NCBI GenBank assembly: GCA_964580065.1
Contig: CAZOJE010000002.1
Coordinates: 2,978 to 66,977 of the forward strand
Direction of reading: 5' to 3'
Origin: an uncultured Candidatus Saccharibacteria bacterium
GTDB lineage: Bacteria > Patescibacteriota > UBA1384 > DTJR01
DNA: 64,000 nt
The position numbers and the translations under genes were made by a program. Shown piece by piece: positions 6,981-55,917 of this stretch. The stretch's first letter is position 1. Every line of letters starts with the position of its first letter. The notes beneath the pieces were generated by a model. It was not told where the DNA came from, made no database searches, and saw nothing but the letters and a program-made list of their open reading frames with translations.

Positions 6981-8141
6981 GTGGTTGAAGTGACGAAGTA
7001 TTTCGCCGTGGTCGTGCTCCTTGCTGTGGTTACGACATTTGTACCACAGCAGGCGATGGCGGGAGGGGTGTTTGAGCTCGTCTTTGGCTCCAAGTCGAAG
7101 ACGGTTCAGGCCTTTGCCCCCGGGGTCATTGGGGCTTTTTCGGCCCGTGATCCGAGAGACTTACACGAGGTCAGCTTTGACCTCGACGGCTCCGGCCGGC
7201 GGGTGGTGCTGGATACCGGCATCCCCGTTGAGAAGGGGCTAGTACTGGTGGGTATCCTTGCTGCCAGCACGGCGGCGAGAAACGCCCAAAAAGCCGTTCT
7301 ACGCCTAGATCTCGATCCGAAGGCTTTTGACGTTGTGCCAGGGCCGAGATCAGGCGAGGATCAAGAGGCGTGGTTGGCCTACGCAGTCACCTGCGCCAGA
7401 TACAAGGTTGGGGCAGGCGGGAGGGCCTTCAAGCCCTTCCAGACGGCGTCACCACCATTCGTATTCGTCGTCGATTCGAGTACGCTGCTGAACTCGGCGC
7501 ACTCGATCGACATTTATCTGGAGTGCGGGGGGACGGGAGCGTCGTTCTTACTGCCCTTCCGGGTTGTTCAGTTGGCTGATGAGACTGGACAACCGATCCA
7601 GAGCGAGTACCAAAAGCCGCTGCCGGCTGGTGCTTACTCTGGCGGAGCAGTTCCGCCCAGTCCCGCTGCTGGCGACTTTGCTGCGCAAGCGCTGGCAAGC
7701 GCCCCCTGGAAGGCGAGGATCAAGGAGGCGGCCGCCAAGCACGGCCTAAACCTGGATACCTCCTCCGAGAAGGACTTTAGGCTCGGCGGAACGTTTCGCT
7801 GGCCTAAGGATAAGGGCCCTTCTCCCTTCATCGTCATTTGCCTCGGCAAGGACGGCCTCCCCTTGCCGCAGGGGAAGATTTCCCTCCTTCTCATGGATAG
7901 AGACAAGATCAGGAGGGAGATCAAGGGAGATGTTATCGACGGAATGTTTGTTTCTTACGATGTTCCGTCGATCAAGCAGGTCGCGTTCCGGGTGAACGGG
8001 CAGATATTGTCCGTTAATATCGTTCCACCCGGGCACGACCCATACTTCGTATGGCAAACGCGTCCCCACGACAAGACGGTGGGGACGTATGTTGTACTCG
8101 TCCAAGACAAGGGCGAGTGGCGCATACCGCGATCTAACTAG
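6981..8141 (+). CDS. Secreted hypothetical protein with a signal peptide, on strongly GC-rich foreign-looking DNA
   Basis: GTG start with an AAGGAG Shine-Dalgarno. The signal peptide ends ...AMA|GG. Codon usage is GC3-rich, unlike its neighbours. No known domain recognised. Confidence 0.6.
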
Positions 8142-8146
8142 AGGAG

Positions 8147-9283
8147 GTGCGCAAGATGCGCACGAAGATTGTCGCATTGACATTTGTCGTGGCCATGGTT
8201 GCTTCGACCGCCATGGCAGATCGGCCGTCGTACGTTCGTGAGGTGAGGGTGGCCCTGACGCACGAAAGGGTCATCCAAGATCCTCGCTTCGCCGCTTTCG
8301 CTCGGCAGTTCGGCTTGTGCGAGAACGTCTTCACGAGTTTCCCGCACAAGCAGGCGAATCTCCCGTCGGAAACGACGGGAAAGTTTCGCTGGGGTGTCGA
8401 CGACTCCCAGGCCAAGGAGTGGGGAGCCGTTACACCGCAGGAGTCGGCCTGTTTCCCGGGGGTACTGTACGACCTCGGGAACGGCTGGTTCCTGCACGCC
8501 CAGCTAGGAGCACTGGGAAACGCTATCCTGTTCTACGGGCGTTTCCCGGGAGCGGGTCCAGCTGGTCCTGCCGGCCCACAGGGTCCTGCCGGTCCTCCTG
8601 GGCCTAAGGGCGATGTTGGTCCGATGGGTCCGGTTGGTCCTACCGGTGCTACTGGAGCTACTGGTCCGGCTGGTGCTCCTGGACCGGCGGGTCCCAAGGG
8701 CGACGCGGGCCTGCAGGGGGCTCCCGGCACGGACGGGGCCGATGGTGCTCCCGGGCCTAAGGGCGACAAGGGAGATACTGGCCCACAGGGTGTCCCCGGA
8801 GCTACGGGCGCTACGGGCGCCAAGGGTGATACGGGGCCTGCTGGTCCCCCTGGACCAGCCGTTGCCGCCGCGCCAGCACCGGCGCCGGCTCCTCCCGAGA
8901 AGCCCAAGAAAAAGCGGGAAGCGCCCTGTGTTTGGGAGCCGCAACCACTTGAGCGGCCGTGCCAGCCACTGGTACAGAAAATCGTCGTGGCTGGCATGCG
9001 CAATGACCGCCCCTTTGGAGTTGACGTTCACGGGGCGCAGCCAATCATCATCCAGCAACCCGGCCGGCCGGGCTTGCTGGACTATGTGGTGCCTCTTGGC
9101 GCGGCCTATCTCGGCCGGGCCGAAGGCAGCCGTTACTACTTGTCGGCCACCGGCGGTACGGCTGTCGCCACCGGTGGCCAGGGCGGATCGGCTTGCGTTG
9201 GGCCGATCACGAACGTGAGCAGCAACACAAACTCCAACGCAAATAGCAACTCTAACGCGTTGGCCGCTAGTGCCGGCAACTAG
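8147..9283 (+). CDS. Secreted collagen-like (G-X-Y repeat) protein, on GC-rich foreign-looking DNA
   Basis: GGAGG Shine-Dalgarno; signal peptide (...STAMA|DR); about 34 uninterrupted GXY triplets ([20 protein letters not shown]...). A Pro/Ala linker follows, then a C-terminal globular region ending in an Asn/Ser-rich tail, [12 protein letters not shown]. Confidence 0.7.
8555..8860 (+). repeat. Collagen-like triplet repeat coding region (~34 x G-X-Y)
   Basis: Direct read of 9-nt/3-codon periodicity GGN-CCN-NNN in frame with CDS 8147-9283. Confidence 0.7.
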
Positions 9284-9302
9284 AGGCCAACGCATTCTCA
9301 TG

Positions 9303-9335
9303 GGGCGGCGGCGAGTGACAAGCTCGCCGCCGCCC
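9303..9335. terminator. GC-rich 13-bp perfect hairpin 20 nt after the collagen-like gene; factor-independent terminator-like without a U-tract
   Basis: GGGCGGCGGCGAG tgacaag CTCGCCGCCGCCC. Confidence 0.4.
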
Positions 9336-9382
9336 TACCGCACTGATTAATTTTCAGCAGAGATAAGCTCTTGAGAAATAAT

Positions 9383-9396
9383 CAAAAGCAAATTAT
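9383..9396. repeat. Right copy of the 14-bp direct repeat CAAAAGCAAATTAT
   Basis: Identical to 6621-6634. Confidence 0.5.
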
Positions 9397-9449
9397 GGTG
9401 AAAATTAGTTCGAGGGGAGCTCACACCTAGGTCGAAAATAAAGAGCCAA

Positions 9450-10118
9450 ATGGCTCAAAGAGGTAAAATGAAAAAAGCAATGACGATTGTTGCAGGAATG
9501 GCCTTAATTGGCTTGGCTACTCCTGTCTACGCCGCAGACACTGCCACTGATTTAACCAATAAAATCATGGCAAATGTCTCGAGCGACCTTCAAAAATCGG
9601 GGATCAAGGCGAATCTTGCAGGTTCGGCTAACCCGTGTTGCATAAGTGGTGGCACATGCTGCGCTAATGGTGGCAGCAATATTACCAATATCAACACTAA
9701 TAACAATACTTCGAGCAATTCGAATAGCATTGCGGTTAATGTTGGAAGCAAGACCTCTGACACTGGCGGAGCAGCCGCTTCAGCCGGTGGTGGAGCTTCA
9801 GCTGGTAATGGGGCCGCCGCTTCAAGTTCAGCCGCTGCCGCCGCTGGCAATGCCAGCGCTTCAGCGTCTGGAGCCGCTTCAGCCGGTACAAATGGAGCTT
9901 CAGCTTCTAGCGCCGCAGCTGCTTCAGCTGGTACAACTAAAGCTAGTACGACCGCAAAGGTTGCTGTTGCCAAAAAGACTGTTAGCAAACCGGCCGAATT
10001 ACCAAAAACCGGTTTTCCGGTTGCACCTGCTGCGGTCGCTTCAGTGGCCGTTAGCGGAGCTTCAGCTGCCGCTTTAGCAATCAGAAAGAAGCTCGCTTTC
10101 ATACGAGAGAATCTTTAA
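9450..10118 (+). CDS. LPXTG-motif cell-wall-anchored surface protein, a sortase substrate
   Basis: N-terminal signal peptide; a Cys-rich CCISGGTCCANGG motif; an Asn/Ser-rich tract; an Ala/Ser/Gly-rich low-complexity region. The C-terminal LPKTG (nt 9999-10013) is followed by a 23-aa hydrophobic segment and RKK, a classic sorting signal. Confidence 0.65.
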   Translation: MAQRGKMKKAMTIVAGMALIGLATPVYAADTATDLTNKIMANVSSDLQKSGIKANLAGSANPCCISGGTCCANGGSNITNINTNNNTSSNSNSIAVNVGSKTSDTGGAAASAGGGASAGNGAAASSSAAAAAGNASASASGAASAGTNGASASSAAAASAGTTKASTTAKVAVAKKTVSKPAELPKTGFPVAPAAVASVAVSGASAAALAIRKKLAFIRENL

Positions 10119-16533: not shown

Positions 16534-19014
16534 ATGTTGAATAATCAACTATATAGTGAGGGTCCCAATTTTGTCGTGATTTTTCTGTGCGTATTGGGCG
16601 CTGTAGTATTTTTTGTCTTACTATATTTTTTGTATCGAAAATATCTTAAATCTAAATTGACTAAAAGGGCAGACGACTTAATTATTTTAGAAGTAAAATT
16701 GCCAAAAAAGTACGAAAAAGAAGAGTATGAACAGCAAAAAACTATCAGGGACATAACGGCGGGGGCGGATCAATTTTTTACGGCCCTGTCTTCTTTATGG
16801 GTAGATGGTTTTAAAGGATTGTTCTTAGGTCAGCCAGTCGTTTCATTTGAATATGTCGCGAAAGACCACGAAATTATGTTTTATGTTGGCGTACCAAGAG
16901 CGGTTGCCTCATTAGTTGAAAAACAAATCCAAAGTTTTTACCCTAGCGCCAACGTCGAACCAAGCGGGGATTTTCGCGTTTTTAAGGAGGGGCTAAAAAT
17001 TGCTTACGGTAATTTGCGACTGTCGCGCAGTTATATATATCCTATTCGAACATACACCGAGCTGGAGAATGACTCGATTGCAAACATTACCAATGTTTTG
17101 TCGAAAATTGGCGAAGATTCAAGAGCGGTTATTCAAATCTTGGTTAGACCAGCCAATCAAAGCTGGCGTGGTCAAGCGGATTGGATGATTAGGCGGATCC
17201 AAGAAGGAAAAGGCACGGCATTTGGGGTGAGTTGGTGGAACAAATTGGGATATTATGCCGGTCAATTATTCTCGGCGGCGGCGACTAACAACAAAGACCA
17301 ACAATTAAATAAAATAACACCAATGCAGGAGGAAACGATTAAATATCTCACGGCAAAAAGTGCAAAGCCAGGGTTTGATGTTCAGATAAGATTAATCAGC
17401 TTGGCCAAAACAGCTCCTGAAGCCGAAACCAATCTTAAAAACCTTGCTTCGGGCTTCTCGCAATTTTCTACACCTGACCGCAATGGTTTCAAATTAGTGC
17501 GCGCCCACGAAGAAAAGTCGTTTTTAACTCATTTTATTTTGCGATCTTTCATTGGTTTCAAAAAGAACCTTCTTAATTCCGAAGAATTAGCTAGCATTTA
17601 CCATTTTCCTTCAGAGCACATTGATACACCGGGGATTAGGTGGTTTAACGCCAAGCGCGCTCCAGCGCCGGCCAATATGCCTAAAGAGGGGCTAATATTG
17701 GGCAAAAATGTTTATCGGGGCGAAGAAACTATCATTCGTCTTAAAGAGACCGACAGACGCCGCCACCTTTATGCCATTGGTATGACCGGCACGGGTAAAT
17801 CAACATTTTTTGAATCGATGATTTTGCAGGATATAAGAGAGGGGAAGGGGCTGGCCTTGTTCGATCCACACGGCGAATTGGCAGAAAGCATCTTGGATAA
17901 AATCCCCAAGGAACGCGCCGATGACGTAATTTATTTTGATCCGGCCGACACCGAAAGACCGATGGGTCTTAATTTGCTCGAATGGAAAACTAAGGAGCAA
18001 AAGGATTTTCTTGTTCAAGAAGCTATTCAGATTTTTTATAAATTGTTCGATCCGAACGGCCAAGGATTTGTTGGGCCGCAATTTGAACATTGGATGAGAA
18101 ATGCGGCCTTGACTTTAATGGATTATCCCGAAGGCGGCACGCTTATCGAAATACCAAAACTTTTTATGGACGACGGTTTTCGACAGGAGCGAATTAAAAC
18201 AATCAAGGATAATACGGTGAAGGCGTTCTGGGAAGAACAAATGGCCAAAACATCCGATTTTCATAAATCGGAAATGTATAATTATTTTATTTCTAAATTT
18301 GGCCGTTTTATGACCAATATTACGATGCGCAATATCATCGGCCAAACGCATAGCGCTTTTGATTTGCGCGAAGCAATGGATTCGGGCAAAGTCTTGCTGA
18401 TTAACTTGTCAAAGGGAGAGATTGGGGAAATAAATAGTAATCTTTTGGGTATGATTTTCGTGGCCAAACTTTTCACGGCCGCTTTAAGTCGAGGCGATGT
18501 TGAAGAAAATGAAAGGCGGGATTTTTATCTTTATGTTGATGAGTTTCAAAATTTTGCCACCGATACTTTTTCTTCAATTCTTTCCGAAGCGAGAAAATTT
18601 CGTTTAAATCTCAATATTACTAACCAGTACATTGCCCAAATTCCCGAGCCAATTAGAGATGCGATCATTGGTAATGTTGGTTCACTGGTTTCATTTAGGA
18701 TTGGTGTGCCGGATGCGGAATTTATGGCTAAAGAATTTGAGCCGATTGCTAATCAAACTGACCTTAACCAAATAGACGCTTACAACGCCTATGCCAAGAT
18801 TTTAATTGATAATGCTCCGACCAAAGCATTCAGCATGCAAACAATTAAGGATCCGACGGAAAAAAATGCTAAGCTTGGGCAGGCAATGCAGGAGCTGTCG
18901 CGATTGAAATATGGCCGCGATGCTTCTATTGTAGAAAGTGAGATAGGCGAGAGACTTAAGACCGTAGAAGTGCCAGAGCAGAAAGACTTTGTAAGGGAAG
19001 CGGGAGTTAAATGA
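16534..19014 (+). CDS. VirD4/TraG/TraD-like (type IV coupling protein-like) P-loop ATPase, membrane-anchored, with a ~380-aa N-terminal domain of unknown function
   Basis: N-terminal TM helix; Walker A (GMTGTGKST); DPHGEL; Walker B (YLYVDEFQNFATD). A paralog of the next gene. Confidence 0.6.
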   Translation: MLNNQLYSEGPNFVVIFLCVLGAVVFFVLLYFLYRKYLKSKLTKRADDLIILEVKLPKKYEKEEYEQQKTIRDITAGADQFFTALSSLWVDGFKGLFLGQPVVSFEYVAKDHEIMFYVGVPRAVASLVEKQIQSFYPSANVEPSGDFRVFKEGLKIAYGNLRLSRSYIYPIRTYTELENDSIANITNVLSKIGEDSRAVIQILVRPANQSWRGQADWMIRRIQEGKGTAFGVSWWNKLGYYAGQLFSAAATNNKDQQLNKITPMQEETIKYLTAKSAKPGFDVQIRLISLAKTAPEAETNLKNLASGFSQFSTPDRNGFKLVRAHEEKSFLTHFILRSFIGFKKNLLNSEELASIYHFPSEHIDTPGIRWFNAKRAPAPANMPKEGLILGKNVYRGEETIIRLKETDRRRHLYAIGMTGTGKSTFFESMILQDIREGKGLALFDPHGELAESILDKIPKERADDVIYFDPADTERPMGLNLLEWKTKEQKDFLVQEAIQIFYKLFDPNGQGFVGPQFEHWMRNAALTLMDYPEGGTLIEIPKLFMDDGFRQERIKTIKDNTVKAFWEEQMAKTSDFHKSEMYNYFISKFGRFMTNITMRNIIGQTHSAFDLREAMDSGKVLLINLSKGEIGEINSNLLGMIFVAKLFTAALSRGDVEENERRDFYLYVDEFQNFATDTFSSILSEARKFRLNLNITNQYIAQIPEPIRDAIIGNVGSLVSFRIGVPDAEFMAKEFEPIANQTDLNQIDAYNAYAKILIDNAPTKAFSMQTIKDPTEKNAKLGQAMQELSRLKYGRDASIVESEIGERLKTVEVPEQKDFVREAGVK

Positions 19015-21746
19015 AAAAGCTAAACGTGCCTACAAGCGCTGATAAAGTTTTGATGCGTTTGATGGTGCCGAAAAACAACGAAAAAACGCCGGCGGCGGCG
19101 GAATTGTTTTTTGCCGCCTTGCATGGCGTTTATAATTACTCAAGCCGAATTCAGCCCGAAATGAGCTTTGAAATAGTCTCAATCAACAAGTTTATCCAAT
19201 TTTACTTTTGCGTGCCGAGAGAACTGAAGGAATTTGTTGAAGGCCAGTTTTATGCTCAATATCCAACCGTGGAAATTTCCGCCGCCGATGATTATACCGA
19301 GAAAATTTTTGAAGAAAAATATGCCGTAGGATATGATGTTCAGACAACTAAAGAAGACGTTTATCCGATAAAAACTTTTCAAAGTTTTGAAGTTGACCCT
19401 TTGTCGGGTATCACAAGTGTCTTGAGCCAACTAAGTGCCAATGAAGAAGTTTGGATACAAATTTGTGTTTCGCCGGCTTCCGATCAGTGGCAAAAAAAAG
19501 CGACTAGCTTTGTAAAGGCGATAAAATCCGGCAATGATCCGAACGAACCGATTTGGAAAACAATTCTTGGCGGTTTGGGTACTATTGCTAAAACTGTTAG
19601 CGCTCCGCCGACGCAAACGGCTTCCGCACCAACACAAGTAGATATCAGCGGCCCGGCCGCTTTAGCAATGAGTGGTATTGAAACGAAGTCAACAAAACTC
19701 GGTTTTAAATCAAAGATAAGAGTCATATCTTTGTCGGGCGACTATCATCGCGCCAGAGCTAATGCCGGTTCTGTTGCAGGTGTTTTGAAGCAATTCACTC
19801 AAACGAATATGAACGGTTTTATACAGGGCAATATTGTTGAGGGTGCGCCAGTGGTAGATCTTTATAAACAAAGAACAGTTGGCTCGACGGGATATATTTT
19901 GAACATAGAGGAGCTGGCAAGCATTTATCATCTTCCGGGCGAAAGTGTTGAAACACCGGCAATGGATTGGGCTGGGAGTAAAAAAGGTGAGCCGCCGATG
20001 AATTTGCCGCTGATAAATGATTTGCATGATTCGCAGGATACGACTATTGTCGGAAAAACAGATTTCCGAAATGAGGAAAGAAATTTTGGTATTAAAATCA
20101 AAGATAGGGCTTTGCATGTGTATGTTTTGGGAAAAACCGGTACTGGTAAGTCAACCCTTTTAAGCAATCTGATTATCGACGATATTATAAAGGGCCGCGG
20201 CGTTGCCGTTGTCGATCCGCACGGTGATTTGATCAATGACGTTATGGAATATATTCCCGAAAGCCGAATCAACGACGTGGTCTATTTTTCACCGGCTGAT
20301 CGTGATTATCCCATCGGCTTCAATCTGCTAGAAAGTGTTGATCCCGAATATAAAAACATTGTTGCTTCAGGCATTGTGGGGATTTTTAAAAAAATATTTG
20401 GCGAATCGTGGGGACCGCGTTTGGAATATATTTTGCGCAACGTTGTTCTTGGACTTCTTGATTATCCGGGCGCAACGATGTTGAGCATTATCAAAGTCCT
20501 GACCGATACAAAATTTAGAAGGGGAGTAATTGAAAAAATTAGCGATCCGGTTATTAAGGACTTCTTTCTTAATGAATATGAAAAGTATGATCAAAAATTT
20601 AGAACAGAAGCCGTAGCGCCGATTCAAAATAAAGTCGGACAGTTTCTTTCGTCTACAATTATTAGAAATATTGTTGGACAGGAGGAAAGCACGATTGATA
20701 TTCGTAAATTAATGGACGAACAGAAAATTCTGCTTGTCGATTTGTCCATGGGTAAAATCGGTGAAGATAACAGCGCACTTTTGGGCTCAATGTTAATCAC
20801 AAAAATTCAAATGGCGGCAATGAGTCGAGCTGATATGCCCAAACAATTGCGTGTGCCGTTCTATCTATACGTTGATGAGTTTCAAAATTTTGCGACAGAT
20901 TCCTTTGCAGTTATTTTATCTGAAGCAAGAAAATATGGCTTGAGCTTAATGATGGCTAACCAGTACATTGCCCAAATGCCGGAAAATGTGGCTAATGCAG
21001 TCTTCGGCAACGTTGGAACAATTATCGCTTTTCGAGTGGGCGCCCAAGATGCCGAGGGATTACAAAGAGAATTTATGCCGGTATTTGAAGCTAATGATTT
21101 AATTAATCAGGATAATTACAATATTTATATTAAAATGGCAATTGACGGGATTACCAGTTCGCCGTTTTCGTCTAAGACAATTTTGCCGATTTACGAAAAA
21201 ACCGACAATATTGCCAACATTACCGAGCAATCACGCATTAAATATTCTAAACCTCGCGAAGAAGTAGAAAAGCAAATCAGGGATAAAACGGAAAACATCC
21301 AAACGCCTACGGAAATTTTGGGGAGCAAAAAGGACGAAAATCCAATTGTTAAAGAAGATAATAAGACAAGTCCAGATACGAGCGTGAAAGAAGACAAAAC
21401 AGAAGATGCTAAAAATGGATTATTCGTCAGCGATATGAACGATAAACGAGAAGATCAGCATGAAAAAGACACAGAAGAGAGTGGGGAACAGAGCCAGGAT
21501 AACGACGCTGATATTCCTGAAGAATTAAAGAATGCTAAAACAGCCGAGGATTATGAAATCAACAAATGGTATTTTCTAACGCGAACGGGTTTTAGAAAAG
21601 TAATTGGCAGAGAAGAAGAACAAGCGCCAAAACGAGCAGAGGAAATGGAAACGAATAAAAATGAGCCGGCAAACACTGCAAGTGTGGGAGCGACGATAGG
21701 GCAAAGTAGCTCGTCTGACACACAAGAAATACCCGAAGCACAATAA
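19011..21746 (+). CDS. Second VirD4/TraG/TraD-like ATPase paralog, with no N-terminal TM and a ~170-aa acidic disordered C-terminal tail
   Basis: Motif order matches the upstream gene: LGKTGTGKST, DPHGDL, YLYVDEFQNFATD, NQYIAQ. It overlaps the upstream gene by 4 nt (ATGA). Confidence 0.6.
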   Translation: MKKLNVPTSADKVLMRLMVPKNNEKTPAAAELFFAALHGVYNYSSRIQPEMSFEIVSINKFIQFYFCVPRELKEFVEGQFYAQYPTVEISAADDYTEKIFEEKYAVGYDVQTTKEDVYPIKTFQSFEVDPLSGITSVLSQLSANEEVWIQICVSPASDQWQKKATSFVKAIKSGNDPNEPIWKTILGGLGTIAKTVSAPPTQTASAPTQVDISGPAALAMSGIETKSTKLGFKSKIRVISLSGDYHRARANAGSVAGVLKQFTQTNMNGFIQGNIVEGAPVVDLYKQRTVGSTGYILNIEELASIYHLPGESVETPAMDWAGSKKGEPPMNLPLINDLHDSQDTTIVGKTDFRNEERNFGIKIKDRALHVYVLGKTGTGKSTLLSNLIIDDIIKGRGVAVVDPHGDLINDVMEYIPESRINDVVYFSPADRDYPIGFNLLESVDPEYKNIVASGIVGIFKKIFGESWGPRLEYILRNVVLGLLDYPGATMLSIIKVLTDTKFRRGVIEKISDPVIKDFFLNEYEKYDQKFRTEAVAPIQNKVGQFLSSTIIRNIVGQEESTIDIRKLMDEQKILLVDLSMGKIGEDNSALLGSMLITKIQMAAMSRADMPKQLRVPFYLYVDEFQNFATDSFAVILSEARKYGLSLMMANQYIAQMPENVANAVFGNVGTIIAFRVGAQDAEGLQREFMPVFEANDLINQDNYNIYIKMAIDGITSSPFSSKTILPIYEKTDNIANITEQSRIKYSKPREEVEKQIRDKTENIQTPTEILGSKKDENPIVKEDNKTSPDTSVKEDKTEDAKNGLFVSDMNDKREDQHEKDTEESGEQSQDNDADIPEELKNAKTAEDYEINKWYFLTRTGFRKVIGREEEQAPKRAEEMETNKNEPANTASVGATIGQSSSSDTQEIPEAQ

Positions 21747-27766: not shown

Positions 27767-28729
27767 CTAAATTTTTGTTTCTCGTAAAGACGAGGCACTT
27801 AATAATGCCCGTTCCATTTGATTATTTGAGAGTAAACCATCTGTGGCGCCAACTTTTGAAATAACACTTGACGAGTTAATCATGCCCCACTTTGCTGCGC
27901 TAACAGCATTCTTGTTGTAAATTATTCCACCGACAAAACCGGACGAGAAGCTATCGCCTGCTCCGGTTGGATCAACGGCGGTGCCGGCAAAAATATTCAT
28001 ATGAAATCTATGATCGTCTTGCGATATGTAGGCGCCGCTTGAGCCGCAAGTAATGATATTTATTTTTGCTCCTAATGCTTTCATCTCTTTTAACTGTGAC
28101 GAAATTTCTTTTGGCCCAAAGATCAAGTCCGCTTCATCTCGATTGATAATAAAAATCTCGCACCATTTAACTAGCGGCGCGAAAAGCGGAAATTTTTCTA
28201 ATTCCCAGCTTCCGGGATTAAAAACGATGCGTGCACCGGATTTGGCTGAAGCGATTAATTTATCGATTAAAATTTCCGCTCCCTTAGCGGCAGAGGCAAA
28301 ATATATCCAATCTGTTTTTGGAATTTTTATTTTATTATAATTTCTTTGCTCATGATGCGATAAAATAGTTCTTTCACTATCGTACAAGATGATAAATGCT
28401 TGGTTCGTCTTGCCGTTCACGGCCGAGCCGTTGAGGAGGACCTTATTTTTATGTAAAAAATCCAAAACTTCTTTGCCTTCTTCGTCATTACCTACAATGG
28501 TGGCAATATATGTTTTAATATTCTGTCGGGCGAAACCTATTGCGACATTAAGGGCGCTACCACCAAAATCGCGATTGGTTTCAGAAACTGGGATTTTTTC
28601 TCCGTAGTTGAAGCAAATTTCTTTTTCTCGAGTTCGCTTATTGACGGACAAAGCGGCGTTTTCTTTGTCTATACAAATTATTTGATCAATAGTTGAATCG
28701 CCAATAGTTAAAATAGATTTTTCCTCCAT
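27767..28729 (-). CDS. PfkB-family carbohydrate kinase (ribokinase-like)
   Basis: GGSALNVA and C-terminal GAGDSF signature. Confidence 0.75.
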   Translation of the reverse strand: MEEKSILTIGDSTIDQIICIDKENAALSVNKRTREKEICFNYGEKIPVSETNRDFGGSALNVAIGFARQNIKTYIATIVGNDEEGKEVLDFLHKNKVLLNGSAVNGKTNQAFIILYDSERTILSHHEQRNYNKIKIPKTDWIYFASAAKGAEILIDKLIASAKSGARIVFNPGSWELEKFPLFAPLVKWCEIFIINRDEADLIFGPKEISSQLKEMKALGAKINIITCGSSGAYISQDDHRFHMNIFAGTAVDPTGAGDSFSSGFVGGIIYNKNAVSAAKWGMINSSSVISKVGATDGLLSNNQMERALLSASSLRETKI

Positions 28730-28802: not shown

Positions 28803-29372
28803 TTATCCTATTTTTTTATACTTGACCGTGTTGCTGTCGGGATCAAAAAGGCCATACATTCCTAGCCCATCGGGATATTTTTGGAAAGACGGGATCTTTA
28901 TATGGGTCGTGGCGGCATACTTCACTAGACCATATTGAGAGTGTAGATGCCCCGAAAGATGATATTTTGGGGCGTTTGCAAATGGTGTCTCAAGGATATT
29001 TTTTAAAGGCGGACGGTGCGTTAAAAGGATTGTTCCGGCTATATCAGCGCTGTCAAATTCATCGAGAATTTCCCCGTCTGATATTCCAAAAACATAGTCT
29101 TTGCCAATTTTTCTTTTGACTAATTGAGCGGAATGTTTTGAGTCCCAAACGCGTCTCCTGACATTTGCTCCGTCGTTGTTGCCCGTAATCAAAAATGATT
29201 TTGGCACCGATTCAAGACAAGAAAAAAATTTTTCAAGATAATCTAAATCATCTCCTTGGCAAATATCACCACAACAAATCAGCCCGTCCGGTTTTTCAAG
29301 TTTAATAAGCTGTTTCAGTTGTGCTAGACAAGCATTATTACTATGTGTATCGCTTATCAGGATTATTTTCAC
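28803..29372 (-). CDS. Metallophosphoesterase (YfcE-like)
   Basis: ISDTH...GD...GNND motifs. Confidence 0.7.
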   Translation of the reverse strand: MKIILISDTHSNNACLAQLKQLIKLEKPDGLICCGDICQGDDLDYLEKFFSCLESVPKSFLITGNNDGANVRRRVWDSKHSAQLVKRKIGKDYVFGISDGEILDEFDSADIAGTILLTHRPPLKNILETPFANAPKYHLSGHLHSQYGLVKYAATTHIKIPSFQKYPDGLGMYGLFDPDSNTVKYKKIG

Positions 29373-30016
29373 TTGTTTAAGTCTGCTTCGATTGTCGAAG
29401 AAAGCTGGCTAAGATCTTCAAGATATGTACCGTTGACAAAGATACTTGGTGTGCCTTGCAACCCTAGTGAAACAGCGTCTTCGCTGTCTTTGGCTACATT
29501 GTTTTTTATCTTTTCAGATGACATATCTTGGGTGAATTTGCTTTTATTAAGCCCTAAGTCGTCGGCAATTTTCGCCAAACCTTTTTCGTCGGCATTTTGA
29601 TAATTGTTAAAAATCAAATCATTAGCTTCTTTAAATTTCCCCTGTAGAGAAGCGGCTTCGGCGGCGCGGCTCATCGGCTCGGCGGCATTATGGATAAGGT
29701 ATGTTCGATGGTAAACTACAATTTTGTCGCCATATTTGTCTGCAATTTCTTTAAGGGTGGTGTTTATATTTTTGCAACCCGGGCAAAGGTAATCCGAAAA
29801 AATAACGACTTTTACCTTAGCGTCTTTCTTGCCTATATATGGCGCATCATCTCTATAAATTAGCTTCTCGTCTGTTCCGACTGTTGATTGTGAGCTAGTA
29901 TCTTGTGTCGGCGCCGATGTTTTTTCGGGCGAAGCAATTAAAATTACGCCTAATATGATACCGGCAATTGCGACAAAGATTAGAAAAGCCCCAGAATTAT
30001 TATTTTTTTTAGCCAT
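29369..30016 (-). CDS. DsbA-like thiol:disulfide oxidoreductase, membrane-anchored
   Basis: N-terminal TM and a CPGC active site in a thioredoxin fold. Confidence 0.7.
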   Translation of the reverse strand: MAKKNNNSGAFLIFVAIAGIILGVILIASPEKTSAPTQDTSSQSTVGTDEKLIYRDDAPYIGKKDAKVKVVIFSDYLCPGCKNINTTLKEIADKYGDKIVVYHRTYLIHNAAEPMSRAAEAASLQGKFKEANDLIFNNYQNADEKGLAKIADDLGLNKSKFTQDMSSEKIKNNVAKDSEDAVSLGLQGTPSIFVNGTYLEDLSQLSSTIEADLNK

Positions 30017-31004
30017 TTTGACTCCTTATAATTGATTCAATTTCTTTTACCGCCAGATCCATTTTTCCCTCAATATTTTTGACGATTTTATCGCAGATAC
30101 CTGCATGACGTATTTCGATTCTAGCAATCTCCATTCTCTTTTCAATAGCTTCTGGTGACTCCGTTGCCCGTTTGACGAGACGTTTTTTTAAATCTTTAAG
30201 GTCTACCTCTAGGAAAATAGCATATACGTTTGCAAACAATTTTTTAAAACTTCGAACGCCGTTTAAATCAATTTCCATTAACGCATTTTTGCCGAGCCCA
30301 AGAATATTATCAACTTCATTTTTTGAAGCACCATACCAGTTGCCGTTATAGCAGTTTTTTTCAATCAACTCGCCGTTTGCTTCCATTTGGTTGAACTTTT
30401 TTTTGTCAACAAAAATCCTTTCAGAACTTTCGTTAGGACGCTTTTCTCGTGTGGTGACTGTTCTTGCTTTGACTAAATTGAGTTTTCTATTTTTTAAAAG
30501 GGCTTGAGTAATAGCGCCCTTCCCCGCTCCGGCGGAACCACAGATTATAAATATTTTGGGGTAAAGTTGATTTACGATCGTTTCGTTAGTTTTGAGCAAA
30601 GAACTTTTGTGCCATACGTATTCTAGTTTTTCAACCGCTTTGTCTTTTTCCAAAAATTCATATTGGCTGAATTCTTTTTTGTCAACATTAAGCTGGCTCC
30701 CCGTTATATCAAAAGCAAAAGCTAATTCTTTTACCTCGCCATTTCTTTTTGGGTCACTACTATTTTTTGCCACAAAATTATTTGTCTGGCCTGTATAAAA
30801 GAAATTACGCCATTGGCTGGTGCCTAGTTCTTCGATTAGCTCTCTTTTGACGCCTTCAATGTATGATTCTTGCTCACAACCCTTGCCATCACCAACATGG
30901 CCGGTTGGAAGTCTCCAGAGCCCGTTGTGCGTTGCACGGCCGACAAAATATAATGGCTTTCCCTCAACAATTTTGTAGGGAATAAATTGAACTTTTTTGA
31001 TCAT
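30009..31004 (-). CDS. Fusion protein: N-terminal Nudix hydrolase and C-terminal guanylate-kinase-like P-loop domain
   Basis: Nudix box GHVGDGKGCEQESYIEGVKRELIEELG (aa ~35-61). The C-terminal half has GSAGAGKG, then TVTTRE..R, then ...NGNWYG..., matching Gmk order (P-loop, TTR, Y-G). Confidence 0.6.
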   Translation of the reverse strand: MIKKVQFIPYKIVEGKPLYFVGRATHNGLWRLPTGHVGDGKGCEQESYIEGVKRELIEELGTSQWRNFFYTGQTNNFVAKNSSDPKRNGEVKELAFAFDITGSQLNVDKKEFSQYEFLEKDKAVEKLEYVWHKSSLLKTNETIVNQLYPKIFIICGSAGAGKGAITQALLKNRKLNLVKARTVTTREKRPNESSERIFVDKKKFNQMEANGELIEKNCYNGNWYGASKNEVDNILGLGKNALMEIDLNGVRSFKKLFANVYAIFLEVDLKDLKKRLVKRATESPEAIEKRMEIARIEIRHAGICDKIVKNIEGKMDLAVKEIESIIRSQNG

Positions 31005-31261
31005 TTTTTTACTTCAACTTCTTCTTTATCTTGAAGTTTGAGTTTATCCCAAACATTTCTTAAGTCAATTAACCGATGAGAGTGCATTGCGCCAGTGCAG
31101 TCGCAAGGAATATCATAAATTCTTACTTTTATGGCAGTGCCCTTTATGTTTAGAGCTTGCTCACCTATCTCGATATCATTCCAAATTTTTTTTGGAACAA
31201 CGATGAATTTATCTATTTCGGTGAAATCATTGAATGCCTTTGTAAAGACTTTGAGCCTCAT
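31001..31261 (-). CDS. Small hypothetical protein (86 aa), 4-nt overlap with the downstream Nudix-Gmk gene
   Basis: ORF with CxC...HxH residues; translational coupling (ATGA overlap) suggests it is real. Confidence 0.4.
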   Translation of the reverse strand: MRLKVFTKAFNDFTEIDKFIVVPKKIWNDIEIGEQALNIKGTAIKVRIYDIPCDCTGAMHSHRLIDLRNVWDKLKLQDKEEVEVKK

Positions 31262-32706: not shown

Positions 32707-32892
32707 ATGAAAATAACTGTTGACAAAGACAAATGTATTGCCTGCGGGATGTGTGCCTCAACCTGCCCGCAGTGCTTTGAAATAAAAGATGGTTTCAGCC
32801 ACGTTAAGGAAGGCGTGGAAGATCATCGCGATTGCGATCTCGATCAAGTTGCAGCTGATTGTCCGGTTGGGGCAATTGAAATCAGTGAATAA
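32707..32892 (+). CDS. fdx: 4Fe-4S single-cluster ferredoxin
   Basis: CIACGMCASTCP ... C...CP motifs in 61 aa. Confidence 0.8.
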   Translation: MKITVDKDKCIACGMCASTCPQCFEIKDGFSHVKEGVEDHRDCDLDQVAADCPVGAIEISE

Positions 32893-32900
32893 TTAGCCAA

Positions 32901-32926
32901 AGGAAAAGGGGCCAATTGTTGGCCCC
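32901..32926. terminator. Hairpin GGGGCCAA ttg TTGGCCCC with an A-run on plus and a T-run on minus; likely a minus-strand terminator closing the adjacent GC-rich element, also positioned after fdx
   Basis: Perfect 8-bp stem at 32908-32926; the minus-strand reading is followed by TTTTCCTTT. Confidence 0.5.
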
Positions 32927-32943
32927 GGAAAGGCGTGCGAGGA

Positions 32944-33345
32944 CTACGACGCTCCGACGATGAACGCGATCCTCGTGATGCTCTTGACCCTGTATGGGCA
33001 GTGCCCCTTCGACGTACTTTGAGGAGATAGGGTCGCGGTAAGCTCGACGTAGCGGCCATCACCCATCTTTATCCAACCGATAATCCTGCCGACAAATGCG
33101 GATCCGACAAACACCTTCTCTCCCTTCCGCTTCCCGTTCCTGCTGGCGATGGTGCCGATCAGATGGTTAGCACCTTGCTGAAAGTACCGGGGAGGACGAA
33201 CCGTGACTTCGGCACGGAAATCCGGCTTTCTCTTTCGAGCTGTTTGGACACGACGATGCAAATGCGTCTGGGGCTTGCTGACTGGCTTACTTCCGTGAGA
33301 CACGAAATATCCCTCCTCGAATGTGGTCGTGAGATGGCCGGTCAA
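32944..33345 (-). other. ~450-bp GC-rich foreign-looking patch carrying a 133-codon basic ORF on the minus strand; unresolved between a horizontally acquired small CDS and a structured RNA
   Basis: GC is visibly much higher than the flanks. The minus-strand ORF (MTGHLTTTFEEG...) spans the whole patch with no recognised domain, and a minus-strand terminator hairpin lies at its 3' end. Confidence 0.3.
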
Positions 33346-33381
33346 GGAAAATCTAATTTAAAAAAAGAAATATTTCAAGAG

Positions 33382-51686: not shown

Positions 51687-52196
51687 TTATAAATCTATAC
51701 CGATTTTGGCTTGTATACCTTTATCGAAAGGATGCTTGATTTTTTTCATTTCTGTCACCAGATCACTTAACCGAAGCAATTTGGAAATTTTGGGGCGGCC
51801 GGTCAAAACTAAATCGATGTTTTTTGGCATGTCTTGAATTAGCTTACATATTTCATTTTCGTCGATTAGCTGGCAATCGATGGCACCAAAGACTTCGTCA
51901 AGGATGATGACGTCGAATTTCTGAAAAGCGTTTGAGATATAACGCAGGCCCTCGAGAGCGGCCTTCTGGTGGTCTTGCAAGGGTTTTTGATCGCCCATGA
52001 TGCCAACAAAACCCAAGCCAAATTTTTTGTGAACGATGAGCTTAATTTTTTTAAGCGCAATGTCCTCCCCCGTTATTTGGTCACCCTTAATAAACTGTGC
52101 AAAAAGAACTTTTTTGTCACGGCCGGCGGCTCGGGTCGCTAGACCCAGAGCCGCCGTCGTTTTTCCTTTTCCGTCGCCGTAGTAAGATATAATCAT
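51687..52196 (-). CDS. cobA: Cob(I)alamin/cob(I)yrinic acid a,c-diamide adenosyltransferase (CobA/BtuR type)
   Basis: P-loop GDGKGKTTAA and conserved ...ILDE... core; ~170 aa. Confidence 0.75.
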   Translation of the reverse strand: MIISYYGDGKGKTTAALGLATRAAGRDKKVLFAQFIKGDQITGEDIALKKIKLIVHKKFGLGFVGIMGDQKPLQDHQKAALEGLRYISNAFQKFDVIILDEVFGAIDCQLIDENEICKLIQDMPKNIDLVLTGRPKISKLLRLSDLVTEMKKIKHPFDKGIQAKIGIDL

Positions 52197-52199
52197 TTT

Positions 52200-55100
52200 T
52201 TACGAGCAACCGGTTGTTGCCCCGCAGTTGACGCATTTGAGGCATTTACCGTTTTGCACCATCATATTTGAGCCGCATTCAGAGCATGTGTCGCCTGAAA
52301 AACCCAACTCTTCAGTCAGTGGTGGCTGACTTACTAAATCAGGCGAGCTCATAATCTTTTCTTCTTCGGACAGACCCATTTCTGTTTGTTTTTCGTCAGC
52401 GGGTGCATTTGTGTCCTCGAAAGGAAGACGCAAGGCCTTTATTTCACCAGAGACAAATTTTTTCTCAAGCCATTTAGCGATGAAATCAGCCACCGAAGAA
52501 ACATTGGGAATATCGTTGTCACCAGTGAAACCCATTGGCGAAAACCGAGTGTGCTTCAGTTGCCTGATAATTGTTTCAATCGGTACGCCATACTGCAAGC
52601 CGATCGAAGCCATTTTAGCAAACGAATCAGCCATTCCCGCGGCAAAACTTCCCTGTTGGCTCATTGAAATAAATATTTCGCCTGGTGCGCCGTCTTTGTA
52701 CAAGCCAACTGTCAGATAGATTTTATGACCGCCAAGCATGACTTTTCTTGTGATTGACATTCTCTCTTTGGGCAGACGTTTTCGCGTCGGCCGATATTCA
52801 ACAACAACTTCTTTCTCTTTTGGTTGCTCGGCTTCTTCTTTTTTGTTTTGCTCTTTTGATGAAAGGGGCTGGGCAATTTTAGATCCATCGCGATAAATTG
52901 CTACCGCTTTCAGAGCATATTTCCACGACTTCATATAAATGTCTCTAATGTCAGATTCGGTCGCTTCGTTTGGCAAATTGACGGTTTTGGAAATTGCACC
53001 AGACAAAAACGGCTGAACGGCCGCCATCATTTCAATATGACCTTCCGGTTTAATAAATCTTATTCCGTAGGCGCCGCAACGATTAGCGCAATCAAATATT
53101 GGCAGATGTTCTTCTTGAAGATCAGGTGCTCCCTCAATTGTCATTATTCCACAGACAAAATCGTTTGCTTCACGGATTTGCTCCTTAGAAAAACCAAGTT
53201 CGCTTAATAAGTCCGCTTTTGGCAAGGAAAAAAAGTCTTCCGAAAGGCCAGCCCTTTTAAGTGACTGTGGCGAAATTGTTTCGCTCCCAATAAGGGTAGC
53301 AATGTCAAATGCACCCGCCAATCGTTTGTTAATTTTGGCGATATCTTCGCTCGTTATCCCCTTCTTTTCCAGCGATTCATTATTGATGTGCGGCGCATTT
53401 TCTAGAGAACCGTGGCCGATAACATAATTAACGATCTTATTAACGGCGCTCTTTGTGTAGCCGAGATTTTTAAGGGCACGCGGAACCGATTGATTAATGA
53501 TCTTAAAATAACCGCCGCCTGCCAGTTTTTTTAATTTCACAATAGCGTAATCAGGCTCAACTCCTGTTGTGTCGCAATCCATCACCAGACCAATTGTGCC
53601 GGTCGGGGCTAAAAGAGTTACTTGGGCATTGCGAAAGCCAAATCTTCCTCCATCGACCAGTGCTTTATCCCAAGATTCTTGGGCCGAGTGCAAAATGTAA
53701 TCGGGGCAATTTTCAGCATCTAAAACCCAAGGAGCGACAGACAACCCTTCGAATTCATCTGCTAAACCATATGCTGCTTTGCGGTGGTTGCCAATGACTC
53801 TAAGCATGTCCTTTTTATTTTTGTTGTAAGTTTTAAACGGACCGATTTCTCGAGCCATTTCAGCGCTGGTCGAATAAGCTATTCCCGTCATCAAAGCAGT
53901 GATACCGGCGGCTACGGCGCGGCCCTTTTCGCTGTCGTACGGCAAACCCATAACCATCAACAAAGCACCAAGATTGGCGTAGCCAAGCCCGAGTGGTCTG
54001 TACAGATAGCTGTTTTTAGCAATTTCGTATGAAGGAAATTGAGCCATCAAAACAGAAATTTCTAATGTAATAGTCCAGAGCCGTGAGGCGTGAGTGAAAG
54101 CTTTAATATCAAATTCACCGCTTTCGTCATGATAAAATTTTAGCAAATTCATCGAAGCTAAGTTGCATGACGAATCATCAAGAAACATAAATTCACTGCA
54201 TGGATTTGAAGCATTGATTCGACCTGATGCTAAGCAGGTGTGCCAATCGTTGATTGTGGTGTCGAACTGTAGCCCGGGGTCGCCGCATTTCCAAGTCGCT
54301 TTGGCAATTTCATCCCAAAGTCGGCTAGCCGATACTGTTCGGGCAATAATATTTGGTTGTGTCCGCCAAGTTAAGTTCCAGTCCTCGTCATTTTCTACCG
54401 CCTTCATATAATCAGACGTAACCCTGACTGTGTTATTGGAATTTTGCCCTGAAACAGTTTGATAGGCCTCACCTTCAAGTCCGGCAGAGTAGCCCTCGGC
54501 TATAAGGGCCGCCGCTTTTTCTTCTTCCTGATGTTTCCAGTTGATAAAAGTTTCTATTTCCGGATGGTCAACGTTTAGAACAACCATTTTGGCGGCACGA
54601 CGAGTGGTTCCTCCTGATTTAATGGCACCGGCGGCCTTATCAAAGATTTCCAACCAGCTCATCAGGCCGGTAGAATGACCGCCGCCCGAAAGTGCTTCGC
54701 CTTTGGCTCGAAGAGATGAAAAGTTCGTGCCGCTACCAGAGCCATATTTAAAGATTCTAGCTTCGCGGGTAACTAGATCAAAGATTCCACCACTATTTAC
54801 CAAGTCATCTCTAACCGATTGAATAAAGCAAGCGTGTGGCTGTGGCCGAGTATAAGCATCTTCAGAAAGCTTGAGCTTTCCATCTTCTGGATCAGCGTAC
54901 CAGTGGCCTTGAGCCGGACCGGAAATTTTGTAAGCATAATTTAAACCGGTGTTGAACCATTGCGGTGAATTTGGCGAGCCGATTTGCCTGATGAGCATGT
55001 ATTTCATTTCGTCTTCAAAAATTGCCGCGTCAGCTTTACTGGCAAAGTAACCATATTTCTCGCCCCAATGTCTCCAACAACCAGCCAAACGATTAACTAC

Positions 55101-55472
55101 TTGTTTAACCGAGGTTTCACTGCCCGTTTTTTGATTGCCGTCTGAATCTAGTAGCGCGTCGCCGTTTTCATCAAATCGAGGAACGCCTTTTCTGCGAATA
55201 TATTTTGAAATTAAAATATCCGAAGCCGTTCGACTCCACGCGGCCGGTACTTCAACTTCATCGGATTCAAAAACAATTGATCCGTCGGGGTTAATAATTT
55301 TGCTCGTTCGTTTTTCGAACTCGATGCCGTCAAACGGATCTTGATTGTGCGTAGTGTAAAACCGATCAATTTTCAATCCTTTAATGTTTTTCTTGCGATT
55401 ATCTTTTTCAACAAGTTTTTCTTTGATTTTTTCTGTTTTAGCCGATGTTCTTGGCACTGATCCCCCCTTCAA
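52200..55472 (-). CDS. nrdJ: Class II (adenosylcobalamin-dependent) ribonucleotide reductase with a C-terminal zinc ribbon
   Basis: Active-site NPCSEF; no glycyl-radical motif; C-terminal CSECGS...CLKCVNCG. The nrdR stop abuts its start. Confidence 0.8.
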   Translation of the reverse strand: MKGGSVPRTSAKTEKIKEKLVEKDNRKKNIKGLKIDRFYTTHNQDPFDGIEFEKRTSKIINPDGSIVFESDEVEVPAAWSRTASDILISKYIRRKGVPRFDENGDALLDSDGNQKTGSETSVKQVVNRLAGCWRHWGEKYGYFASKADAAIFEDEMKYMLIRQIGSPNSPQWFNTGLNYAYKISGPAQGHWYADPEDGKLKLSEDAYTRPQPHACFIQSVRDDLVNSGGIFDLVTREARIFKYGSGSGTNFSSLRAKGEALSGGGHSTGLMSWLEIFDKAAGAIKSGGTTRRAAKMVVLNVDHPEIETFINWKHQEEEKAAALIAEGYSAGLEGEAYQTVSGQNSNNTVRVTSDYMKAVENDEDWNLTWRTQPNIIARTVSASRLWDEIAKATWKCGDPGLQFDTTINDWHTCLASGRINASNPCSEFMFLDDSSCNLASMNLLKFYHDESGEFDIKAFTHASRLWTITLEISVLMAQFPSYEIAKNSYLYRPLGLGYANLGALLMVMGLPYDSEKGRAVAAGITALMTGIAYSTSAEMAREIGPFKTYNKNKKDMLRVIGNHRKAAYGLADEFEGLSVAPWVLDAENCPDYILHSAQESWDKALVDGGRFGFRNAQVTLLAPTGTIGLVMDCDTTGVEPDYAIVKLKKLAGGGYFKIINQSVPRALKNLGYTKSAVNKIVNYVIGHGSLENAPHINNESLEKKGITSEDIAKINKRLAGAFDIATLIGSETISPQSLKRAGLSEDFFSLPKADLLSELGFSKEQIREANDFVCGIMTIEGAPDLQEEHLPIFDCANRCGAYGIRFIKPEGHIEMMAAVQPFLSGAISKTVNLPNEATESDIRDIYMKSWKYALKAVAIYRDGSKIAQPLSSKEQNKKEEAEQPKEKEVVVEYRPTRKRLPKERMSITRKVMLGGHKIYLTVGLYKDGAPGEIFISMSQQGSFAAGMADSFAKMASIGLQYGVPIETIIRQLKHTRFSPMGFTGDNDIPNVSSVADFIAKWLEKKFVSGEIKALRLPFEDTNAPADEKQTEMGLSEEEKIMSSPDLVSQPPLTEELGFSGDTCSECGSNMMVQNGKCLKCVNCGATTGCS

Positions 55473-55473
55473 T

Positions 55474-55917
55474 TTACTTTTTTAATTTTATAAGCTCTTG
55501 TTCAAAAGAGCTGATGTCTTTAAAATTTTTATATACGCTGGTAAATCTCAAATATGCAATTTCGTCGATTTTTTTCAATCTTTTTATCACCATATTACCA
55601 ATTTTCTTTGTTGGCACATTCTGCTCGCCTGATTCGATAATCCTTTTTTCGATACTATCAACAATTTCTTCGATCTCGTCAGGGCTAATCCTATCGTTAG
55701 CCGACATTTTAATTCCGCGGGCGATTTTTTCGCGATCAAACGGTTCAACTCGACCATTGCGTTTGATAACGGAAATTTTAATCGCTTCAATCCGTTCATA
55801 GGTATTAAAACGGTATTTGCAATCTTCGCATTCCCTTCGACGACGAATGGTTTTCGCATCATAGTCACGGGAATCAATGACTGAAATACTAGTAGATTTA
55901 CATATAGGACAAATCAT
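55474..55917 (-). CDS. nrdR: Transcriptional repressor NrdR
   Basis: N-terminal zinc ribbon CPICKS...CEDCKYRF and an ATP-cone. Confidence 0.9.
   Translation of the reverse strand: MICPICKSTSISVIDSRDYDAKTIRRRRECEDCKYRFNTYERIEAIKISVIKRNGRVEPFDREKIARGIKMSANDRISPDEIEEIVDSIEKRIIESGEQNVPTKKIGNMVIKRLKKIDEIAYLRFTSVYKNFKDISSFEQELIKLKK

Follow-up and report, generated by a model that had tools for sequence, protein, structure and literature searches.

A Nudix-guanylate kinase fusion of a Berkelbacteria-type lineage as a candidate bifunctional guanine-nucleotide enzyme

Why should a bacterium of the Candidate Phyla Radiation (CPR) carry a Nudix hydrolase and a guanylate kinase (GK) in one open reading frame (ORF)? 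The question is raised by a gene at positions 30009-31004 of a 64,000-nucleotide stretch of contig CAZOJE010000002.1, which comes from an uncultured Candidatus Saccharibacteria bacterium (assembly GCA_964580065.1); the whole of this stretch is called the window below. The original prediction, made from the letters of the window, was a Nudix hydrolase fused to a guanylate-kinase-like P-loop domain, a pairing described as unfamiliar. In the Pfam scan both domains were found above the gathering score, NUDIX (PF00293) at residues 18-132 with 32.8 bits (gathering 21.1; E 8e-8; profile positions 17-127 of 134) and Guanylate_kin (PF00625) at residues 150-328 with 92.8 bits (gathering 25.2; E 2.7e-26; profile positions 3-181 of 182). 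All of the kinase motifs that had been quoted, the P-loop, TTRE...R and NGNWYG, are present (GSAGAGK at residues 156-162, TTREKR at 184-189 and NGNWYG at 220-225). The AlphaFold (AF2) model of the whole two-domain protein has a mean predicted local distance difference test score (pLDDT) of 90.8 and a predicted template modelling score (pTM) of 0.87, and the junction region is well modelled (mean pLDDT 91-93 in the 10-residue blocks covering residues 141-160), the two halves being rigidly joined in the model. The gene is predicted to encode a single cytoplasmic polypeptide with two catalytically competent halves.

For the collection of homologues, we employed a word-indexed protein search and an exhaustive profile search of 1.84 billion cluster representatives. 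The word-indexed search gave 7 full-length clusters carrying both Pfam domains, at 98% to 42% identity, and the profile search gave about 16 full-length representatives (clusters at 50% identity) with 268-514 bits, below which, at 206 bits or less, stood fragments of the fusion family, proteins with multiple GK domains and free-standing guanylate kinases. The uninterrupted Nudix-GK ORF was identified in assemblies of JGI, ENA, Logan and NCBI and in 17 further metagenome loci; more than 20 independently assembled contigs carry it, at 33-98% identity. A frameshift from assembly or sequencing error, by which two genes would have been joined, is ruled out as the source of the fusion, because the same continuous ORF recurs in so many independent assemblies. 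Among 19 full-length members the mean pairwise identity is 37% for the Nudix half and 42% for the GK half; the junction is without insertion or deletion, and its YPKIF sequence is nearly invariant by column counts. As judged from these alignments, the fusion appears to be kept by selection as one unit.

A pattern scan of species-representative genomes gave one named genome, a Candidatus Berkelbacteria metagenome-assembled genome (L007), of which the fusion protein (MCX6809490.1) is labelled 'NUDIX domain-containing protein'. The same name is used for the fusion by NCBI, and JGI uses 'guanylate kinase'. In the literature search a paper describing a Nudix-Gmk fusion was not found, nor was anything specific on nucleotide salvage in Berkelbacteria. 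The pairing is rare, in good agreement with its having been unfamiliar at first reading; it is contained in public databases, unnamed as such and uncharacterised. Both halves belong to ordinary, well-known enzyme superfamilies, and nothing in them is mechanistically unprecedented.

The Nudix half carries a strict match to GX5EX7REUXEEXGU at residues 40-62 (GKGCEQESYIEGVKRELIEELGT), the final 'U' being Thr (Ile or Val in most relatives). The complete box that had been predicted is present; the 27-residue string then quoted for it begins five residues early. The Ex7REUxEE core is present in 18/18 full-length relatives checked, and E46, R54, E55, E58, E59, E93 and E111 are invariant across 21 Nudix sequences. 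Since the first box glycine of relatives with a shorter loop is the 'TGH' glycine (G35), the window protein carries a loop insertion of about 5 residues. When the profile of 21 Nudix members was compared with PDB, the best matches were 3SON (7e-16), Chlamydia trachomatis CT771 (6e-12) and human NUDT2 (6e-10), followed by Escherichia coli NudB (2e-9) and the Caenorhabditis elegans Ap4A (diadenosine tetraphosphate) hydrolase (4e-9), and then by MutT, RppH-like and Dcp2 proteins. Over the full length of the domain, with the C-terminal helix (profile positions 4-137), the best match of known structure is 3SON, an uncharacterised Nudix structural-genomics entry; being a single-domain protein of unassigned function, it allows no functional transfer.

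By profile search, the closest characterised relatives of this half are NudB, the dihydroneopterin triphosphate (DHNTP)/dATP pyrophosphohydrolase (2O1C), and the asymmetric Ap4A hydrolases (NUDT2, 3U53; CT771, 4ILQ; C. elegans, 1KT9). They share with the fusion the pre-box loop W-x-x-(P/V)-(T/K)-G-H/S-V-E and, downstream, the segment E-(H/F)-x-x-Y-(K/R)-(W/F)-L, which holds the third metal-binding Glu (PMC5526541). The metal ligands of NudB are Glu56, Glu60 and Glu117, equivalent glutamates serve in Ap4A hydrolase and RppH, and CT771 is cited as an asymmetric Ap4A hydrolase (PMC5526541 and ref. 26 therein). E111 of the fusion aligns with the Glu of NudB 'TEHLAYKWL' (Glu117), and in this alignment all three metal-binding glutamates are retained. 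The differences are an identity of about 25-30% to the fusion's Nudix domain, the added kinase, and the scores in NCBIfam, of which the NudB and RppH models are touched by most members and no model reaches its cutoff: 20/21 family members match NudB NF006961 (DHNTP diphosphatase) weakly (best E 3.7e-13, below the equivalog cutoff), and the matches listed for the window protein itself are RppH models at 13-20 bits. The closest free-standing Nudix relatives are CPR proteins, labelled 'NUDIX pyrophosphatase' or 'dATP pyrophosphohydrolase' by their sources. From its residues the Nudix half looks catalytically competent, as a putative Mg-dependent pyrophosphohydrolase of the NudB / asymmetric Ap4A hydrolase / RppH group.

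That the C-terminal half is guanylate-kinase-like, and not of another P-loop family, is agreed upon by Pfam, the match to TIGR03263, the PDB search and Foldseek. The PDB sequence search with the fusion gave 26 guanylate kinases (E 1e-23 to 7e-13), to the solved members of which the GK half is about 27-32% identical, and Foldseek placed the fusion model on the yeast Gmk-GMP complex 1GKY with E 8e-17, a target-normalised template modelling score of 0.88 and a root-mean-square deviation of 1.7 A over 187 columns. A non-enzymatic GK of the MAGUK type is ruled out by the intact P-loop and catalytic arginines and by the far weaker matches to MAGUK GK domains (E 1e-7 or worse). For comparison of single residues, an alignment was made of 20 GK domains from the family and 49 canonical Gmk, the latter taken from genomes of Bacillota (including Mollicutes-type lineages), Bacteroidota and Actinomycetota. 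The Walker lysine K162 and the lid arginines R275, R279 and R290 are kept in 20/20 family members, and T182, R186 and R189 of TTRxxR, E215, Y224 and D246 are conserved in the family. By our own mapping onto the published yeast numbering, we take K162, T182, R186, R189, E215, Y224, D246, R275, R279 and R290 to be yeast K14, S34, R38, R41, E69, Y78, D100, R131, R135 and R146, respectively. This set would comprise the phosphoryl-transfer machinery and the guanine-recognising carboxylates (Glu215 and Asp246). The fusion thus shares with Gmk (PF00625/TIGR03263; yeast 1GKY/1EX7, E. coli 2ANB) the fold, the P-loop lysine, TTRxxR, the guanine-binding Glu and Asp, the YG motif and the three lid arginines, and differs by the added 145-residue N-terminal Nudix domain and by the substitutions considered below. 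The 'GKG' in its P-loop is no deviation, as 43/49 canonical Gmk carry this form, the commonest there. At the position of yeast S80, the YG(S/T) residue, the window protein has Ala, and 17/20 family members have Ser or Thr. By alignment and model, the ATP site appears intact and the GMP site almost intact.

In the NudB / asymmetric Ap4A hydrolase / RppH group, cleavage of a nucleoside 5'-oligophosphate leaves a nucleoside monophosphate end. Our tentative reading, to which we assign a probability of roughly 0.4, is that the fusion may be a bifunctional guanine-nucleotide enzyme with functionally coupled halves. The Nudix half would turn a guanine-containing oligophosphate into a GMP-level product; its substrate might be (d)GTP, either non-canonical or in surplus, a dinucleoside tetraphosphate (Ap4G and Gp4G are examples) or an alarmone. 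In the kinase half, GMP + ATP -> GDP + ADP would be carried out and re-entry into the GDP/GTP pool decided. From this pool both RNA synthesis and a class II ribonucleotide reductase, whose gene also lies in the window, would be supplied. With the Nudix half releasing the nucleoside monophosphate (NMP) and the GK half making GDP, the protein would sit where guanine nucleotides leave and rejoin the pool. Roles in nucleotide salvage or alarmone metabolism, as proposed at first reading, are hypothetical. In a specific version, purely inferred, Ap4G would be cut to ATP + GMP, and ATP + GMP would then be converted to ADP + GDP. A Nudix domain is joined to a nucleotide-transfer enzyme with related metabolites as substrates also in NadM-Nudix (NMN adenylyltransferase / ADP-ribose pyrophosphatase; NCBIfam NF003788), a precedent that differs from Nudix-GK in the partner enzyme, the Nudix subfamily and the pathway (NAD).

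Several observations, given here and in the paragraphs on the specificity of each half, weigh against such coupling. When the metagenomes were searched with an 86-aa ORF that lies directly upstream of the fusion gene as bait, and the flanks were scored with domain hidden Markov models (HMMs), two locus variants were identified. One of them (L065, 2952-3799) carries, in the same synteny, the 86-aa-type ORF and then a 194-aa GK without Nudix, the halves being separable; the other (L064, 1333-2098) carries the small ORF, a frameshifted Nudix-only gene and, 80 bp on, the gene for a DsbA-like protein that also follows the fusion in the window. Each half is thus able to stand alone, and the GK half is dispensable at least in the L064 lineage, because it is deleted there at the orthologous locus; the role of essential Gmk that was considered at first reading is a hypothetical one. 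The GKs of CPR bacteria are also joined to unrelated partners, namely RluA-type pseudouridine synthase in two different GK clades (P0046, 434 aa, a 22-member cluster; P0262, 520 aa) and a cytidylyltransferase-like HxGH domain (P0090, 322 aa), and in P0013 (532 aa; L072) the Nudix-GK protein runs in frame into its DsbA-like neighbour to give a triple fusion. Because of these unrelated partners, the fusion may reflect genome compaction and not pathway coupling: it would then consist of the lineage's Gmk and a generic NudB-like house-cleaning pyrophosphatase, with a gain in co-expression only. The promiscuous GK fusions together with the separable halves suggest compaction, and the 4-8 nt overlaps between the genes of the operon would allow neighbours to be fused easily by loss of a stop codon. 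We regard it as somewhat unlikely, since the fusion persists down to about 25-30% pairwise identity with the junction invariant and gap-free, since the precursor to be expected, a Nudix gene next to a separate GK gene, was not seen at any of the related metagenome loci, and since a second fusion of the two folds exists in the reverse order.

The reverse-order GK-Nudix fusions (P0142, P0193 and P0194), identified in another CPR lineage, hold the same two Pfam families in one polypeptide in the opposite order. Their Nudix halves are related to that of the window protein (hhalign probability 97.6%), and the GK half falls within another, very large, clade of CPR GKs with the P-loop GxGED, without the Walker lysine. 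The reverse-order fusion is of independent origin, and this recurrence suggests that the two folds are functionally linked. Since its GK half is without the Walker lysine, the reverse-order fusion may not be a kinase, and this again counts against coupling of the kind proposed.

The relatives of P0142 (P0195-P0302) make up, as a separate observation, a very large CPR/Patescibacteria family labelled 'guanylate kinase' or 'hypothetical protein' (Moranbacteria, Parcubacteria, Magasanikbacteria). Their P-loop is GPSG(A/V/S)GED(S/T), with the Walker lysine replaced by Glu in 28/28 free-standing sequences read and in P0142, P0193 and P0194, while the TTTR...R, NYYG and lid motifs are kept. Either these proteins would not be conventional kinases, or the chemistry of CPR Gmk would be unusual.

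As to the specificity of the kinase half, its score with TIGR03263, the Gmk equivalog of NCBIfam, is 137.3 bits, under the cutoff of 160.45, and Arg stands at position 196 in 19/20 fusion-family members, in contrast to Tyr in 49/49 canonical Gmk; the corresponding yeast residue, Tyr50, is a ligand of the GMP phosphate. In addition, the window protein has Lys and Cys in place of canonical Tyr216 and Tyr304, respectively. On account of the low score and of the replacement of an invariant Tyr of the GMP site by Arg, the specificity may have shifted. The protein would in that case be a paralogue, adapted through Arg196 and Lys216 to phosphorylate another phosphate-rich nucleotide, possibly the product of the Nudix half, with a canonical Gmk elsewhere in the genome. 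The loss of the GK half in the L064 lineage, where it is not indispensable, is in agreement with this alternative, which is nevertheless improbable in our estimate: the guanine-recognising Glu215 and Asp246 and all of the phosphoryl-transfer residues are retained, and when the HMM of the GK half was run against the six-frame ORFs of the window and of the flanks fetched from relatives, the fusion gene alone was matched, with no second GK gene. Moreover, the same Arg occurs in free-standing GKs (P0027, P0028, P0037, P0049 and others), and one of these, P0028, is the GK that stands alone at the orthologous locus L065, as would be expected for an ordinary lineage-specific Gmk. Because the free-standing GKs share this Arg, we read the GK half as a subtype particular to the lineage, predicted to be active as a GMP kinase, with some remaining chance that its specificity has shifted, and Arg196 as a putative lineage-specific grip on the NMP phosphate rather than a loss of function.

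As to the Nudix half, the substrates in the NudB/Ap4A/RppH group are very diverse (DHNTP, dATP, Ap4A and triphosphorylated RNA), and no feature here points specifically to guanine, which is the last of the points against coupling through guanine nucleotides. One guanine-containing class of substrate has precedents on both sides of the fusion, as (p)ppGpp is hydrolysed by the Nudix enzymes NahA, MutT, NudG and Ndx8, and in Firmicutes (p)ppGpp/pGpp has Gmk as a conserved target (PMC7584652). The Nudix half might accordingly degrade (p)ppGpp or pGpp that competes at the GMP site of Gmk, so that the fusion would relieve its own inhibition, and the extra Arg in that site could favour a more highly phosphorylated ligand. 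We hold this alarmone module to be very unlikely, for the Nudix half is nearest to NudB and the Ap4A hydrolases and not to NahA/YvcI, its best NCBIfam matches are NudB and RppH, and neither a RelA/SpoT-like gene nor a small alarmone synthetase was seen among the genes of the 64-kb window.

The fusion gene is predicted to be the second of four translationally coupled genes, which encode an 86-aa Cys2His2 protein, Nudix-GK, a DsbA-like protein and a metallophosphoesterase, and which overlap, in operon order, by ATGA, ATGGCTAA (fusion/DsbA-like) and GTGA (Table 1). The overlap of the 86-aa ORF with the start of the fusion gene agrees with the translational coupling of the original prediction. Next downstream is a PfkB-family kinase, for which the best NCBIfam matches are ribokinase, ribose-1-phosphate kinase and nucleoside kinase, all under cutoff. 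In all relatives the gene order is kept, namely RmuC, RluA-type pseudouridine synthase, Dus, ferredoxin (opposite strand), the 86-88-aa ORF, Nudix-GK, DsbA-like, metallophosphoesterase, PfkB kinase, 2-hydroxyacid dehydrogenase, GAPDH, thioredoxin reductase and SecDF. The window is otherwise housekeeping as well (DprA, topoisomerase I, RecR, CysRS, release factor, Pth, L1/L10/L12, Tgt and FtsZ/FtsA), and the context of the fusion is thus housekeeping, not mobile or defence. The PADLOC scan of the fusion protein and of the 86-aa ORF gave no match to defence models. The gene is read as a vertically inherited chromosomal gene of a Berkelbacteria-type CPR lineage.

The 86-aa ORF family seems to be confined to this lineage (29 metagenome loci) and has a mean column identity of 52% over 27 sequences. 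The invariant residues are K4, I16, D17, K24, G33, C53, C55, H60, H62, D66 and L67, and the spacing CxC...HxH among them would suit a zinc site. No match was obtained in the Pfam or PDB searches, and the single-sequence structure model is unreliable (pLDDT 52). In every related locus long enough to tell, the ORF is directly upstream of the Nudix/GK gene, and it is retained at both variant loci together with whichever half is present there (GK in L065, Nudix in L064); this adjacency is weak evidence of a functional link, because the whole region is syntenic. A small ORF overlapping the start of a larger gene by 4 nt is a layout like that of toxin-antitoxin pairs, and with it go a weak Zeta_toxin P-loop match (E 0.001) and weak MazE_antitoxin matches in 3/27 homologues of the small ORF (E 0.025). 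The identification as a MazE/AbrB antitoxin was rejected, as hhalign of the small-ORF family against AbrB and MazE gave a probability of 1-2%; as neither protein is matched in PADLOC and every relative shows the same housekeeping synteny at the locus, a toxin-antitoxin or defence module is, like the frameshift artefact, hardly credible.

A far more specific proposal includes the small protein: the Nudix half would cut a guanine dinucleoside polyphosphate such as Ap4G, or an alarmone, and pass both kinase substrates directly to the Arg196-adapted GK, the pair forming a dedicated two-step machine of which the 86-aa Cys2His2 protein would be a zinc-binding regulator or subunit. We consider this decidedly improbable in its full form.

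Table 1. Positions in the window of the fusion gene, its parts and the neighbouring genes
Feature	Positions	Strand	Remarks
Nudix-guanylate kinase fusion gene	30009-31004	minus	331 aa, ATG-to-TAA ORF; both Pfam domains; full-length homologues P0001-P0007, P0011-P0023
Nudix domain	30570-31004	minus	residues 1-145; Pfam match 18-132 = 30609-30953
Guanylate kinase domain	30021-30557	minus	residues 150-328; PF00625
Domain junction NQLYPKIF	30549-30572	minus	residues 145-152; gap-free, YPKIF conserved
Nudix box GKGCEQESYIEGVKRELIEELGT	30819-30887	minus	residues 40-62; regex match
P-loop GSAGAGKG	30516-30539	minus	residues 156-163; Walker lysine K162
Arg196 codon	30417-30419	minus	replaces tyrosine invariant in canonical Gmk (yeast Tyr50)
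86-aa ORF	31001-31261	minus	upstream of fusion; 4-nt overlap (ATGA) with fusion start; invariant C53, C55, H60, H62
Membrane-anchored DsbA-like thioredoxin-fold protein	29369-30016	minus	Thioredoxin_4 / DSBA; start overlaps fusion stop by 8 nt; conserved neighbour
YfcE-type metallophosphoesterase	28803-29372	minus	Metallophos; weak TIGR00040 yfcE match; 4-nt GTGA overlap with DsbA-like gene; conserved neighbour
PfkB-family (ribokinase-like) sugar or nucleoside kinase	27767-28729	minus	PfkB 121 bits; next gene downstream; conserved neighbour
Class II (B12-dependent) ribonucleotide reductase	51687-55917	minus	1090 aa, C-terminal TSCPD domain; NrdR before, corrinoid adenosyltransferase after

Some further features of the region were observed. 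The metallophosphoesterase (28803-29372, minus strand) matches the PADLOC candidate-defence model PDC-S10 (E 1.4e-13) over its N-terminal 69 residues only, probably through generic metallophosphoesterase similarity. Between the ferredoxin gene and Dus lies a GC island (32850-33350), 450-500 bp long, with 53-57% GC against about 38% for the genome. It carries a 133-aa ORF (32944-33345, minus strand), for which the PDB search gave chance-level nanobody matches only (E >= 0.16), followed by a strong terminator-like hairpin (32926-32908). As a structured RNA the island had no Rfam match and folded no better than shuffles (z +1.35), and its DNA gave a single weak match, in the related locus L060. 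Elsewhere in the window, an 826-aa protein without Pfam match precedes a VirD4/TraG/HerA-like coupling ATPase of 911 aa (16534-21746, plus strand), and the pair may belong to a machinery for type IV secretion or DNA uptake; a 378-aa collagen triple-helix repeat protein (8147-9283, plus strand) stands among several ORFs without Pfam matches (6981-10118). Upstream of the syntenic block, a few kb away, one relative carries a heliorhodopsin gene (L003/L004:1-207).

Many CPR bacteria depend on salvaged nucleotides, and a limited capacity for biosynthesis is reported for the CPR group; the control and cleaning of the GTP pool in these organisms is therefore a real gap. If the fusion were the product of compaction only, the outcome would be a refinement of annotation, 'bifunctional Nudix hydrolase / guanylate kinase' replacing 'NUDIX domain-containing protein'. 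If the dedicated two-step machine were true, the reverse-order fusions would mark an unrecognised Nudix-Gmk pathway for guanine-nucleotide control in bacteria unable to make purines. The replacement of Tyr by Arg in the GMP site, together with the large GK clade without the Walker lysine, indicates that CPR guanylate kinases are not textbook enzymes. A conserved link between a Nudix domain and a GMP kinase, made twice independently, gives a testable hypothesis as to which oligophosphate would be cut and whether GMP would be recycled in cis.

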